From contig JACPXL010000002.1 of assembly GCA_016196555.1 (NCBI GenBank), forward strand, positions 17,865 through 81,864: a DNA stretch of 64,000 bases. Reading direction: 5' to 3'. Positions 26,512 through 31,192 of this stretch are shown one piece after another. A program made the position numbers and the translations under genes. Below the pieces are notes generated by a model. It had not been told where the DNA came from, did no database searches, and saw nothing but the letters and a program-made list of their open reading frames with translations. The DNA comes from Candidatus Omnitrophota bacterium (GTDB taxonomy: Bacteria > Omnitrophota > Omnitrophia > Omnitrophales > Aquincolibacteriaceae). Each line of letters opens with the position of its first letter. Position 1 is the stretch's first letter.

Positions 26512-28443
26512 TTATTTTGATTTATTCTTGTCTTTGCCCTCTTCATCGACGACTTCATAGTCTGCATCGACAACATCTTCAGGTTTTCCTGTTTTTCCCG
26601 CCGTTTCGGCAGAGGCCCCTGAAGGAGCCGCTTTCTTTGCGGCTTCTTCATAGACTTTTTGCGCAATCGTATGGGAAGCGGCCGAGAGCTTTTGCATGGC
26701 CTGCTGGATTTTCTCTACAACATCTTCTTTCAAAGCTTCTTTCGCCTCTTTCAGGGCGTCTTCGACACGTTTTTTTTCATCCGCGGAAATTTTTTCTCCG
26801 TGCTCGGCAACACTTTTTTCCGTGGCATAAATCAAATTGTCGAGCTGATTTCTCGAGGTAATGACTTCGTGTTTCTTTTTATCCTCTTCGGCATGCTCTT
26901 GGGCCTCTTTGACAAGTTTATCGATCTCGTTTTTGGCAAGGCCGGATGAAGATTCAATTCGGATCCTCTGTTCTTTACCCGTGCCTAAATCTTTTGCAGA
27001 GACATGCACGATACCATTGGCATCGATGTCGAAAGTGACCTCGATTTGAGGAACTCCGCGCGGCGCAGGAGGAAGTCCTTCCAAATTAAAAATCCCAAGC
27101 ATGCGATTGTTGGTTGCCATTTCGCGTTCCCCTTGCAGAACTTTTACGGTCACAGCCGTTTGATTGTCAGCTGCAGTTGAGAAAATCTCGGATTTTTTAG
27201 TTGGAATCGTTGTATTCCGTTCGATCAATTTGGTCATCACTCCGCCGAGTGTTTCAATTCCAAGGGAAAGCGGCGTGACATCCAAAAGCAAAATGTCCTT
27301 AACGTCGCCCTTAAGAACTCCTCCCTGAATGGCGGCGCCTACGGCCACAACTTCGTCCGGATTGACGCCTTGATGAGGATCTTTTCCGAAAAGCTTTTTT
27401 ACTTTTTCAAGCACAGCCGGCATGCGGGTCTGACCGCCGACTAAAATGACTTCATCAATGTCTTCGGGTTTTACACCAGCATCTTTCATGGCTCTTACAC
27501 AAGGCCCGACTGTTCGTTCCACTAAATCCCCCACTAATTGTTCCAGCTTTGCGCGGCTGAGGCTGATAAGCAAATGTTTGGGTCCGGAAGCATCGGCAGT
27601 GATAAACGGCAAATTGATTTCCGTATTTTGGGAACTTGAAAGTTCGCACTTGGCTTTTTCGGCGGCTTCTTTAAGGCGTTGGAGGGCCATTCTATCTTTA
27701 GCCAAATCAATACCATCAGTTTTTTTGAACTCTGCAATAAGCCATTCAATGATTTTTTGATCAAAGTCATCACCGCCTAAATGAGTGTCCCCGTTCGTGG
27801 CTTTGACTTCAAAAACACCTTCGCCGATTTCCAGAATTGAAATATCGAAAGTTCCGCCGCCAAGATCGTAAACCGCAATGGTTTCATCTTTCTTTTTATC
27901 GAGGCCGTAAGCCAGTGATGCTGCGGTGGGTTCGTTGATAATTCTGAGAACCTCAAGACCGGCAATGGCACCGGCGTCTTTGGTCGCTTGACGTTGAGAA
28001 TCATTAAAGTAGGCCGGAACCGTAATTACGGCTTGTTTAATGGATTCGCCCAAATAGGCTTCTGCATCAGCTTTTAATTTTTGCAGTACCATCGCTGAAA
28101 TTTCAGGCGGAGTATAATCCCGGTTTTCCATGGGGATATGAATGACCGCTTCATGATGTTTTCCTGCTTTGGTTTTAAAGGGAACTAATTTACTCTCCTG
28201 CTCGACTTCTTCGAATCGACGGCCGATAAAGCGTTTTGCACTAAATACGGTATTTTCCGGGTTGGTAATGGCTTGCCGTTTGGCTGCTTGACCGACCAAA
28301 CGGTCCCCTGTTTTTGTAAATGCGACGACGGAGGGAGTGGTTCGATTACCTTCTTTGTTGGGAATAACCTTCGGTTCCGATCCTTCCATGACTGCCATGC
28401 ACGAATTTGTCGTTCCTAAATCAATTCCTAAGACTTTAGCCAT
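26512..28443 (-). CDS. dnaK: Molecular chaperone DnaK (Hsp70)
   Basis: [17 protein letters not shown] and [11 protein letters not shown] signatures. An AAAGGAGA SD is present. No grpE or dnaJ is adjacent. Confidence 0.97.
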
Positions 28444-28495
28444 TTTGATTTCTCCTTTTTAGATTAAGACAGTTTTTAAGACTCGCCTCTATAAG

Positions 28496-28512
28496 ATCAA
28501 TATCCATGCCAA
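28496..28512 (-). promoter_or_regulatory. Sigma54-like -24/-12 element TTGGCATGGATATTGAT upstream of dnaK (the -12 element is GA rather than GC)
   Basis: On the minus strand, TGGCA then N6 then TTGA, with the GG-to-TTG spacing of the TGGCACG-N4-TTGC consensus. It lies about 55 nt upstream of the dnaK ATG. Confidence 0.35.
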
Positions 28513-28601
28513 ATTCGATTCTGAGGCTGTTTCCTTAACCGCTTTGTTTATAGTCAGTTACGAGAGGGATAAAAAATTATCAGAAAAGAAAAATTGAAAT
28601 C

Positions 28602-28616
28602 GTGTCACATTGACAC
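28602..28616. promoter_or_regulatory. Perfect inverted repeat GTGTCA-CAT-TGACAC: candidate enhancer-binding-protein site or weak terminator hairpin
   Basis: A 6-3-6 palindrome about 95 nt upstream of the -24 element. An extra GTGACA half-site sits at 28635-28640. On the minus strand a T-rich tract follows. Confidence 0.35.
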
Positions 28617-28642
28617 AAAGCTTAACGTATCAAAGTGACAAA

Positions 28643-30013
28643 TTAGAGTTTGTATTCGTCGATTTTCCGGTAGAGCGTTCGGCGGGAAATTCCCAATTTT
28701 TTAGCGGCGGATGATTTATTTCCACGGGAATCATTGAGAGCTTGTTTGATAAATTCTTTTTCCACATCGCTCAAATTTCTGGAGCCATTGAGTAAAGATT
28801 CGGTTGTGGAAGAAGATAAAATTTGACCGGAATTGTTGCGTATGTCATCAGGGACGTTGGCGAGATGAAGATGATGCTCATTGCTTAAGACGACCATTCT
28901 CTCAATAATATTTTTGAGTTCGCGGATATTTCCAGGCCAGGGATATTGCAGCAAGGCTTGTTTTGCGTCAGGAGCAAGAGTCGGTGGTTTTTTTCCGTTT
29001 ATTTCAGAAAAGTATTTAATAAAATAATCAATCAGCGGAAGAATGTCTTCAGGGCGTTCACGCAGTGAAGGTAATTTGATATAAATCACATTGATGCGAT
29101 AATACAAATCTTCACGGAATCTTCCTTTATTGACCTCTTCCTTTAGATTTTTATTAGTCGCGCAAACCAGCCGGACATCGACTCGTATTGTTTTGGAGCC
29201 GCCCACACGCTCGAATTCTCCGTTTTGTAGAACGCGCAGAAGTTTGACTTGTGTTTCAGCTGAGATTTCCCCGACTTCATCCAAAAATAAAGTCCCCTGA
29301 TGAGCCCGCTCAAACCTTCCGATTTTTCTTTCCGAAGCGCCGGTAAAGGCGCCGCGTTCATGGCCAAACAGCTCACTGGCGAGCAGCGTTTCCGTCAGGG
29401 CGGCACAATGGACGGCAATAAAGGGCTTGCTTGCGCGTGAACTTAGACGATGGATACGATGCGCGATCAATTCCTTGCCCGTGCCACTTTCGCCTTCAAT
29501 TAAAACGGCGGAATTTGATTTTGCGATTTTGTCGACGGTTCGCAGCGCTTCTTTCATCTTGGGAGAAACGGCTAGAATTTCACCCCGCTCAAATTTTTGG
29601 GTGAATAAGGCTTGGCGCAGTTCTTGGTTTTCTTCTTCTAGGTTTTTCTTTGCGAGAGATTTGGTAACCAAAAAATCCAACTCTTCAAGATTGATTGGCT
29701 TGGTTAAATAATAGTACGCTCCTTTTTTCATGGCTTTGACAGCATCTTCGACTGAACCGTAAGCTGTCAGAAAAATTACGGTGGCTTTAGAATCGTGAGC
29801 GATTATTTTTTCGAGGAGTACTATCCCGTCCATTTTTGGCATTTTGACATCGCATAACACGAGATCGGGTTTATCTTTGAGATAAATCTCCCAGCCTTCG
29901 CTTCCATCCGCGGCCAAAAGAATATCATAACCTTTTGCTTCCAAAAATTGCTTCAGGCCATCGCGGGTATTTTTTTCGTCATCAACAATTAAAATGGTGG
30001 CAAATAAGGGCAT
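28643..30013 (-). CDS. Sigma54-dependent response regulator (NtrC family: REC + AAA+ + Fis-type HTH)
   Basis: REC domain with D at ILIVDDE...CDVKMP, Walker A GESGTGKE, GAFTGA motif, and a C-terminal HTH AAKKLGISRRTLYRKI. Confidence 0.92.
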   Translation of the reverse strand: MPLFATILIVDDEKNTRDGLKQFLEAKGYDILLAADGSEGWEIYLKDKPDLVLCDVKMPKMDGIVLLEKIIAHDSKATVIFLTAYGSVEDAVKAMKKGAYYYLTKPINLEELDFLVTKSLAKKNLEEENQELRQALFTQKFERGEILAVSPKMKEALRTVDKIAKSNSAVLIEGESGTGKELIAHRIHRLSSRASKPFIAVHCAALTETLLASELFGHERGAFTGASERKIGRFERAHQGTLFLDEVGEISAETQVKLLRVLQNGEFERVGGSKTIRVDVRLVCATNKNLKEEVNKGRFREDLYYRINVIYIKLPSLRERPEDILPLIDYFIKYFSEINGKKPPTLAPDAKQALLQYPWPGNIRELKNIIERMVVLSNEHHLHLANVPDDIRNNSGQILSSSTTESLLNGSRNLSDVEKEFIKQALNDSRGNKSSAAKKLGISRRTLYRKIDEYKL

Positions 30014-30022
30014 AGGTTTTAG

Positions 30023-31192
30023 TTAGGATGCTTTTAGTTCATTGGTTAGTTGAAGTTTAGTGCGGCGAATGGGAAGAAGAATAGCGAACGTTGTCCCCTT
30101 CCCAAGTTTACTCGTGACTTCAATCTTGCCGCCATGTTCCATCACATGATTGTAGACCGTCATAAGGCCCAGGCCCGAGCCTTCTTCCTTAGTTGTGTAA
30201 TAGGCCTCAAAAATATGGGGCAAATCCCTTTCGGAAATTCCCTGGCCTTCATCTTGAAAATGCAGTATTGCAACCTGATTGCGATGAGAAATGCGAATTT
30301 TAATCATGCCGCCCCTTTGCATAGCTTCCATTGCATTTTTGAGAAGATTAATAAAAGCTTGATAGAGCCGCTCGCGGTCCATCAAAAATGGAGCCAGAGA
30401 GCGGTCGGGACGAAATTTAATCGCAATTTTTCGTTCCGAAAGTTCCGGAGCCATAAATTGAGCAGCTTCCTCGACAAGAGAATTCAGATCTTCCAGACGG
30501 AACCTTAAAAGCGGTTTCCGGGTCGCTTTTAAAAAATGACGCACAATTCTATCAAGACGAGCGGTTTCGGTATTTAGAATATGCAAAGTTTTGGCAACAG
30601 CTTCACGTTTTACCTCGGGCAATGTAGCAACTTCCTTTTTTAGGAGTTCTAAATGAATATTGAGTGAATTTAGGGGATTTCCGATTTCATGGGCCAAGCC
30701 CGCAGTCAACCGGACCATGGCTTCAATCCGCGCCAAGCGTTCTTCATCCGATTGGCGGATTTTTTGTTCAGTAATATTGGCAATGATCACGACAATTATT
30801 TTTTGGCCGTTAGAGGCATACGGGGCTAAAGTGACTCGCAAAAAACTTTCACGCGGGCTTAAAACTTGAAAATCTTGAACAACTTTGGCGGAGAGACCTT
30901 TTAAATTTTGTTTAATAAACCGGCTCAAAACCGGGTCTTCAATGGAGTCTTGGAATTTGGTGTTAAGGGGAAAATCCTCCTGCACGCCAAGCCAAAAAGA
31001 AGCGCTGCGATTAAGGAATAAAACCTGGCCTTTTTCGTCGATTAAGGCAAGCCCTTCTTCGAGTTCCTGAAAAGCTTCTCGGTAAAGGGCGGTTTCATCA
31101 CAAAGCTTTTTAAGATAATTGCGGATGGCTTCACGATCCAGCCGGTCCACATGTTCTAAAAGTTTGTAAGTAAAACCGCTCCGTTCAGGCAT
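30023..31192 (-). CDS. Cytoplasmic PAS-domain sensor histidine kinase
   Basis: H-box LAHEIGNPL, N-box LLKNAMEA, G-boxes DEGQGI and GSGLGL. No TM helix. I chose the start at ATG 31192 (MPERSG), which gives an ATGCCTGA overlap with the trpF stop. The longer track ORF would dual-code conserved trpF sequence. Confidence 0.85.
   Translation of the reverse strand: MPERSGFTYKLLEHVDRLDREAIRNYLKKLCDETALYREAFQELEEGLALIDEKGQVLFLNRSASFWLGVQEDFPLNTKFQDSIEDPVLSRFIKQNLKGLSAKVVQDFQVLSPRESFLRVTLAPYASNGQKIIVVIIANITEQKIRQSDEERLARIEAMVRLTAGLAHEIGNPLNSLNIHLELLKKEVATLPEVKREAVAKTLHILNTETARLDRIVRHFLKATRKPLLRFRLEDLNSLVEEAAQFMAPELSERKIAIKFRPDRSLAPFLMDRERLYQAFINLLKNAMEAMQRGGMIKIRISHRNQVAILHFQDEGQGISERDLPHIFEAYYTTKEEGSGLGLMTVYNHVMEHGGKIEVTSKLGKGTTFAILLPIRRTKLQLTNELKAS

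Follow-up and report, generated by a model that had tools for sequence, protein, structure and literature searches.

What drives the transcription of dnaK in a bacterium whose dnaK gene is preceded neither by a controlling inverted repeat of chaperone expression (CIRCE) nor by a recognisable sigma-70 promoter? The question is raised by a stretch of 64,000 nucleotides from a Candidatus Omnitrophota bacterium of the order Omnitrophales (assembly GCA_016196555.1, contig JACPXL010000002.1, positions 17,865 to 81,864; hereafter the window, to whose numbering all plain coordinates refer). In it, dnaK lies on the minus strand downstream of genes for a histidine kinase and an NtrC/AtoC-type activator, and an earlier reading made from the letters alone (hereafter the sequence-only reading) had proposed a sigma-54-like promoter and palindromic upstream sites in the spacer between the activator gene and dnaK. 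Comparison with related genomes supports this proposal: dnaK of this bacterium lies behind a real and deeply conserved sigma-54 promoter, for which the kinase/activator pair is the most likely switch. The parts of the locus concerned are the following.

28497..28511, minus strand: sigma-54 promoter TGGCATGGATATTGA, read from the sequence, with counterparts at 30/30 orthologous loci and the top matrix score genome-wide

26512..28443, minus strand: dnaK, 643 aa, the regulated gene (Pfam HSP70, 902 bits; NCBIfam DnaK equivalog, 1037 bits with a cut-off of 648)

28452..28456, minus strand: Shine-Dalgarno sequence AGGAG of dnaK, read from the sequence; aAGGAG occurs in nearly all orthologous leaders

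On the minus strand the promoter region reads TTGGCATGGATATTGAT (28512-28496), the element as a whole being TGGCAT-GGATA-TTGA, with TGGCAT at 28511-28506, the GG at 28510/28509 and the TTG at 28500-28498. The spacing is exactly that of a sigma-54 promoter, with 10 nt from the GG to the -13/-12 dinucleotide and the TTG standing before that dinucleotide. The sequence-only reading had described just this, TGGCA and TTG at the -24/-12 distance with GA instead of GC at -12, and it is confirmed in both respects, the -12 base being A (28497) and not C. The ATG of dnaK (28443-28441) follows 53 nt downstream of the element, and the predicted transcription start would fall near 28485. Within the window alone the pattern TGGCAY-N5-TTG has three matches against 1.4 expected, which is not above chance; it is the comparison with relatives that makes the case for the promoter.

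A search of 40 relatives from the same family and the same order yielded 30 dnaK loci, with DnaK proteins 73-87% identical. All 30 carry TGGCA[C/T]-N5-[T/A]TG upstream of dnaK with identical spacing, at a distance of 34-153 nt from the ATG; the spacers cannot otherwise be aligned, and the flanks of the element are divergent. Conservation extends to positions outside the anchor pattern, namely T at -26 (30/30), T at -15 (29/30) and G at -20 (22/30); GGCA is part of the anchor pattern, so that its invariance in all 30 loci is partly imposed, whereas that of the T at -26 is not. In 279 kb of the relatives' loci, read on both strands, TGGCAY-N5-[T/A]TG has 35 matches, of which 30 are the dnaK sites and the other five are about what chance would give; some 0.02 matches would be expected per locus. 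The window's own assembly measures 1.69 Mb and is 86% complete, and the genome-wide statistics reported here used crude open reading frame (ORF) calls as the gene set. When this genome was scored with a matrix built from the 29 other genomes only, the site before dnaK came out as the best match genome-wide (24.7 bits). Scoring against the rest of the genome and conservation in relatives were among the tests that the sequence-only reading had named for its promoter, and the site withstood both. A side observation concerns the varying distance to the ATG: a family of palindromic repeats resembling repetitive extragenic palindromes (…ATTCCCGC…GCGGGAATGACA…), which dominates the spaced-dyad census of the genome, has invaded the dnaK leader of two relatives (L009 and L029), where copies lie between promoter and gene and have moved the promoter to 123 and 153 nt from the ATG.

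Outside the order the picture changes. In 20 other Omnitrophota no exact TGGCAY-N5-[T/A]TG was found within 400 nt of dnaK, the nearest being one loose TGGTAT variant in a single genome (L124), and none of the 20 has an activator gene upstream of dnaK; in many of them dnaK directly follows grpE. Phylum-wide sigma-54 control of dnaK was thus considered and rejected, and the absence of the arrangement from these 20 genomes makes it a derived trait of the order. It may further be supposed that dnaK in this order has left an ancestral grpE-dnaK arrangement.

The base at -12 sets the dnaK promoters apart. Across the 30 loci it is A in 20, T in seven, C in two and G in one, whereas in the same order C occupies this position in 21 of 22 amtB promoters (2/30 versus 21/22, Fisher p = 2.7e-11) and the sigma-54 elements found at groESL in some relatives have it in four of five. 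Because amtB and groESL keep the C, the deviation belongs to particular promoters and not to the sigma-54 of the lineage; a general loss of the -12 C in the group is contradicted by the amtB promoters. C occupies this position in 96% of sigma-54 promoters and restrains basal transcription, and heat has been shown to enhance activator-bypass transcription in vitro (PMC4551910). By analogy, A or T at -12 probably loosens the '-12 lock' at the dnaK promoter, and the looser lock could permit some basal or heat-favoured transcription of an always-needed gene. One may go further and regard A/T at -12 (27/30) as an adaptation that weakens the lock exerted by sigma-54 Region I at the -12 fork junction; initiation would then be basal, partly independent of the activator and intrinsically favoured by heat, the promoter serving as its own thermometer and the kinase/activator pair as a second, signal-dependent layer. 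We offer this idea tentatively, and on balance doubt it. Other candidate sigma-54 promoters of this genome also read TTGT or TTGA (C14:3298, minus strand; C15:16583, plus; C69:6383, plus; C11:1869, minus; C94:14768, minus, where C14 and the like denote contigs of the assembly). The genes behind them encode a porin-like protein, two small secreted proteins, an 85-aa protein and an alpha/beta hydrolase; TCTGACAC repeats lie 60-90 nt upstream of the C69 and C11 elements, and GTCAGA-N4-TCTGAC accompanies the C94 element.

The sigma factor itself and a suitable activator are both encoded in the genome. The gene rpoN, without which the proposal would have fallen, is present (Sigma54_DBD, 186.9 bits, on C73), as it is in 27/27 high-quality relatives, and the two genes preceding dnaK are these.

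28643..30013, minus strand: NtrC/AtoC-type enhancer-binding response regulator, 456 aa, with REC (PF00072), AAA+ with GAFTGA (PF00158, 243.7 bits) and HTH_8 (PF02954)

30023..31192, minus strand: soluble AtoS-like histidine kinase, 389 aa from the ATG at 31192, with one weak PAS, HisKA and HATPase_c

The activator is complete, with the GAFTGA motif visible in the translation and the stop codon at 28645-28643, and the kinase gene lies 9 nt upstream of it. Of the pair named in the sequence-only reading, a sigma-54-dependent activator with its PAS kinase, the activator and an adjacent HisKA/HATPase_c kinase are thus borne out, and the PAS assignment stands less firmly, its matches being sub-threshold only (18 bits). 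The best named NCBIfam families are AtoC for the activator (502 bits, equivalog cut-off 714) and AtoS for the kinase (204 bits, cut-off 646), both below their cut-offs. An ortholog of the activator, 53-71% identical, lies directly upstream of dnaK in 26/30 relatives. The assembly contains only two distinct sigma-54 activators, one beside dnaK and the other beside amtB. In a search of the contigs of other genomes, the activator matched proteins of at most 51% identity, in other phyla, and no dnaK was found within 3 kb of its closest homologues in Lentisphaeria or Verrucomicrobia. As to the kinase, its ORF could extend to 31315, and its start is most likely the ATG at 31192, overlapping the stop codon of trpF (31185-31192); with such an overlap, the kinase/activator pair would be the tail of a his-trp transcript.

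Two further features, farther upstream in the spacer, have the form expected of sites for such an activator.

28601..28617, strand not assigned: predicted enhancer (upstream activating sequence) palindrome cGTGTCA-CAT-TGACACa, a 7-N3-7 site of the type TGTGYCA-N3-TGRCACA, starting 106 nt upstream of the T of TGGCA

28635..28642, minus strand: extra half-site TTTGTCAC (GTGACA at 28635-28640 on the plus strand), immediately behind the stop codon of the activator gene, with a counterpart in relatives in the form of clustered half-sites at about -121 to -131

The perfect palindrome GTGTCA-CAT-TGACAC (28602-28616, plus strand) and the additional GTGACA half-site are both where the sequence-only reading had placed them. 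The palindrome occurs once in the window against 0.03 expected, and the wider search for it that this reading had suggested found no second copy in the genome with at most one mismatch. The 7-N3-7 geometry is that of the NtrC site. In the relatives, exact TGTGYCA/TGRCACA 7-mers are present in 17/30 distal spacer regions, as against 0/30 control regions of equal length, and the half-sites keep fixed offsets from the T of TGGCA, at about -121, -106 and -97, with the core 7-N3-7 palindrome at -106 to -90. The palindrome is therefore, as far as sequence can tell, a conserved class of predicted activator site at a fixed offset, an inverted repeat lying within the 80-150 bp or so upstream where such sites are sought.

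Two comparisons tie the palindrome to the activator. At groESL of the relatives, half-sites occur at -95 to -144 in four of five loci with a sigma-54 element and in one of 19 without (Fisher p = 0.002). The closest kinase/activator pairs outside the order, in turn, belong to Spirochaetota, with an activator 47-48% identical over its full length and, at the locus L044, a kinase 33% identical end to end. At L044 (1830-5417) the kinase-activator pair is followed by GTGTCA-ATA-TGACAC, then, 102 nt on, by a sigma-54 promoter TGGTAC-N5-TTGCA, and then by an rpoS/rpoD-like gene; at L049 the activator homologue is followed by cGTATCA-TTA-TGATAC, and at L056 the palindrome likewise follows the activator homologue.

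Between enhancer and promoter the sequence-only reading had seen an AT-rich, bend-prone tract. This description needs correction, for the tract holds a specific and conserved palindrome.

28536..28560, strand not assigned: TAAC-N17-GTTA, the sole match in the window, between enhancer and promoter; candidate site for a dimeric architectural (IHF-like) protein or another global regulator

The exact N17 spacing recurs in 25/30 orthologous loci, in 20 of which the element ends 21-25 nt before TGGCA. Genome-wide there is a sharp spike at this spacing, with N17 represented by 19 sites and other spacings by 0-4, which makes TAAC-N17-GTTA the strongest spaced dyad in the genome after the repeat families. 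The spacer is itself palindromic (TAACyy.TT...AA.rrGTTA). Sites lie upstream of topA, ileS, gap, purB, an rfaE-like gene and the IHF-like gene itself (examples are those upstream at C14:10790 and C56:15394, and those at C74:9491-9517 and C77:10490-10516), and in relatives also between enhancer and promoter at some amtB promoters. An IHF-like gene is present at C14:10443-10790 and an HU-like gene on C15; the Escherichia coli IHF consensus WATCAANNNNTTR has no match in 28497-28620. Judging from its position, we favour a site for a dimeric architectural protein, and it may more broadly serve a global regulator that binds DNA as a dimer. Several other identities were considered and set aside: an HrcA operator or heat-shock box, given that the other targets are housekeeping genes and that CIRCE is canonical in the order; the main promoter of the lineage, given the canonical TTGAYW-N17-TAnAAT at groESL; and, as unlikely, an extracytoplasmic function (ECF)-type promoter, given the palindromic spacer and the housekeeping targets. 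Its distances to the promoter (21-25, 13-16 and 6 nt) form no clean 10.5-nt series, and we make no claim of helical phasing.

Are the usual heat-shock regulators then missing? CIRCE (TTAGCACTC-N9-GAGTGCTAA) was not found near dnaK with up to four mismatches, in agreement with the sequence-only reading, nor in the whole assembly with up to three, one site appearing at four. The repressor gene hrcA does occur, in an hrcA-grpE-dnaJ cluster on another contig (C15:7502-11365). The ORF called for it is short, at 255 aa, covers no more than the C-terminal half of the Pfam model and follows a 460-aa ORF after a gap of 8 nt; no operator was found upstream of it on C15. For a proteobacterial-type rpoH, whose control of dnaK would have told against the proposal, the best TIGR02392 match reaches 182 bits with a cut-off of 323 in this 86%-complete genome, which has three sigma-70-family genes. 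As groEL was not found here, probably because it lies in the missing 14%, 30 groEL loci of relatives (L136-L165) were scanned instead. CIRCE (at most four mismatches) is present in 24, and the other six look like second copies; most relatives have two tandem groEL genes, with the sigma-70 promoter and CIRCE on the first unit. In 24/24 CIRCE-bearing loci, groESL has a TTGAYW-N17-TAnAAT sigma-70 promoter and a canonical CIRCE. The canonical CIRCE at groESL and its absence at dnaK indicate that HrcA control is still operating in the order and that dnaK is exempt from it. In five of the 24 loci a sigma-54 element is also present, either right after CIRCE (L146, L149, L157 and L162) or upstream of it (L140), as a rule together with TGTGCCA/TGACACA half-sites, and the dnaK activator may thus also serve groESL in some genera.

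The amtB gene, beside the second activator, provides an internal positive control for a working sigma-54 system, as its promoter is a textbook TGGCAC-N5-TTGCA (C57:12784-12798, minus strand). Its enhancer is a different palindrome, TCTACAAATTCGTAGA in this genome and TACAAAAATGTA-like in relatives (L166-L195); here it lies at -106 to -91, the same offset as that of the dnaK enhancer. The activator-amtB unit, promoter included, is found on two contigs (C5:10112-12682 and C57:11319-13870) with AmtB 95% identical, which looks like strain heterogeneity or a duplicated contig and not a true paralogue pair.

We consider it very probable that dnaK is transcribed from an enhancer-dependent sigma-54 promoter, with the kinase/activator pair encoded upstream as its regulators and the palindrome as the enhancer. 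The soluble AtoS-like kinase would phosphorylate the adjacent NtrC/AtoC-type activator, which would bind TGTGTCA-N3-TGACAC(g) and the flanking half-site, centred some 124 bp upstream of the predicted start. The intervening DNA with TAAC-N17-GTTA would be bent so that the activator touches RNA polymerase-sigma-54 sitting at TGGCAT-N5-TTGA (28511-28497), and ATP hydrolysis would open the promoter, the product being a dnaK mRNA with a predicted leader of about 42 nt. Several observations weigh against this model. The activator gene is not adjacent to dnaK in four of the 30 relatives; the promoter lacks the -12 C that 96% of known sigma-54 promoters keep; some 15 ordinary housekeeping genes likewise have TAAC-N17-GTTA in front of them, and the region lacks the E. 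coli IHF consensus; the hairpin and T-rich tract described below could mean that the palindrome also terminates transcription of the kinase/activator operon; and in a genome 86% complete, further activators, an rpoH or copies of the palindrome could be missed. Strict dependence on an activator would, moreover, be awkward for an always-needed gene, so that another promoter or read-through may contribute.

This last point leads to the alternative that survives best, although we regard it as unlikely: the sigma-54 element would be real but would provide only a stress boost or hold a poised or braking polymerase, and most dnaK mRNA would come from read-through of the his-trp-kinase-activator genes or from TAAC-N17-GTTA acting as a promoter of another sigma-70-family factor. 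DnaK is normally needed constitutively, the N17 spacing is promoter-like, the element precedes housekeeping genes (gap, ileS, topA and purB), and the three sigma-70-family genes leave room for such a factor. The symmetry of TAAC-N17-GTTA, however, extends even into its spacer, which suggests a dimeric binding protein and not a promoter, and its presence between enhancer and promoter at some amtB sigma-54 promoters also speaks against this alternative. The housekeeping promoter of the order, TTGAYW-N17-TAnAAT, was not found at dnaK, and the hairpin and T-tract after the activator gene argue against free read-through.

The same hairpin is the basis of a second alternative, which extends the suggestion of the sequence-only reading that the palindrome might be a weak terminator. 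One more feature is relevant to it.

28569..28600, minus strand: T-rich tract after the palindrome, possibly the terminator tail of the kinase/activator operon or a bendable spacer (from sequence and fold)

On this account GTGTCA-N3-TGACAC would be only the intrinsic terminator of the kinase/activator operon, with no enhancer role, and the activator would act without specific binding or elsewhere, as Borrelia Rrp2 reportedly does in working without an enhancer. The palindrome region indeed folds as a hairpin followed by the T-rich tract (-17.3 kcal/mol, z = -4.25), and a terminator scan reports it as a stem of eight pairs; only three of these are G-C pairs, and the T-rich tail is interrupted. 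What is conserved in the otherwise unalignable spacers, however, is the sequence of the half-sites and not just their pairing, and it is from the -24 element, not from the stop codon, that they keep a fixed distance. At groESL, where no gene ends, the half-sites go with the sigma-54 element (4/5 versus 1/19), and the same palindrome and spacing recur in Spirochaetota. Given the conserved sequence, the fixed distance to the promoter and the occurrence at groESL and in Spirochaetota, termination is probably not the sole role of the palindrome; it could be a second one, and the purely terminator reading appears very improbable to us. The third alternative, a chance resemblance with dnaK served by the poor sigma-70 promoter that the sequence-only reading had kept in reserve, could appeal to the chance-level window count (3 versus 1.4) and the missing -12 C, but is effectively refuted by the element at 30/30 loci against about 0.02 expected per locus and by the lack of any sigma-70-like match in 28300-28800.

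How does the proposed arrangement compare with known systems? The classical NtrC/glnAp2 and NifA/nifH promoters have a 7-N3-7 enhancer more than 100 bp upstream, an IHF site midway and a -24/-12 promoter. The dnaK locus of the window repeats this plan, with a 7-N3-7 enhancer at more than 100 bp, a conserved midway element and a -24/-12 promoter; it differs in the half-site (TGTGYCA as against TGCACCA), in the A/T at -12 and in the midway element, which is the symmetric TAAC-N17-GTTA and not the IHF consensus. The Spirochaetota loci L044, L049 and L056 share with the window a homologous kinase/activator cassette, the homology having been measured on these loci, and GTRTCA-N3-TGAYAC just after the activator gene, with the promoter distance of 102 nt measured in L044; the difference lies in the output, an rpoS-like sigma factor there and dnaK here. 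Their layout also recalls the Hk2-Rrp2-RpoN-RpoS cascade of Borrelia burgdorferi (PMC2940757), in a form in which the genes are neighbours and the enhancer can be recognised.

The sequence-only reading had regarded dnaK under two-component/sigma-54 control as an unusual heat-shock circuit. It is less unusual than that, as there are precedents in Chlamydia, Myxococcus, Bacteroidota and Planctomycetota (PMC7482065, PMC8762339, PMC9109919, PMC12316311). In Chlamydia (2020, PMC7482065; Huang et al. 2022, PMC8762339) an AtoS/AtoC-like two-component pair and sigma-54 likewise act on the Hsp70 system; AtoC and AtoS are also the families that the window's pair matches best in NCBIfam, though the AtoC cut-off is missed (502 versus 714 bits), and some relatives have a sigma-54 element beside CIRCE at groESL. 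The chlamydial activator, however, is without a DNA-binding domain, whereas that of the window has HTH_8 and a conserved enhancer, and the chlamydial target is the entire hrcA-grpE-dnaK operon, served by CIRCE and a tandem sigma-66 promoter, whereas the window's dnaK is monocistronic and has neither CIRCE nor a recognisable sigma-70 promoter. In Myxococcus xanthus, according to the description given in PMC9109919 (citing Ueki & Inouye 2002), the HsfB/HsfA phosphorelay activates the heat-shock gene lonD. As far as that description goes, this too is a histidine kinase and an NtrC-like response regulator directly activating a heat-shock gene, with the differences that the target is the Lon protease and not Hsp70 and that HsfB is a hybrid kinase.

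For Bacteroidota and Planctomycetota, a survey with position-specific scoring matrices (PMC12316311) describes sigma-54 promoters, predicted or observed, in front of chaperone genes, and it cites work in which grpE and groES of B. thetaiotaomicron and F. psychrophilum depend on sigma-54. The likeness consists in a -24/-12 promoter before DnaK and other chaperone genes, replacing sigma-32-type control; what distinguishes the window's locus is a dedicated two-component activator syntenic with dnaK and a non-canonical -12 base specifically at dnaK. Omnitrophota are not mentioned in that survey (0 occurrences), and our literature search found no paper on sigma-54 in this phylum. The variant features that go beyond these precedents are the DNA-binding two-component activator syntenic with a monocistronic dnaK, the promoter-specific -12 base and the cassette shared with spirochaetal rpoS-like genes.

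For the biology of the group, the locus offers a well-supported case, in a phylum without a cultured model, of part of the heat-shock response being run by sigma-54 and an ATP-driven activator and not by sigma-32 or HrcA, and it adds to the growing evidence for such control in many bacteria outside Proteobacteria and Firmicutes. The loss of the -12 C at dnaK is a natural test of the idea that this base sets the tightness of the sigma-54 promoter lock. The order as a whole represents a natural experiment in which the chaperone regulon has been split, groESL being left under sigma-70 and HrcA-CIRCE and dnaK being moved behind a two-component activator. In Spirochaetota the output of this kinase/activator/enhancer cassette is an rpoS-like gene, and the cassette thus appears to be a reusable stress module that has been rewired to a different output.

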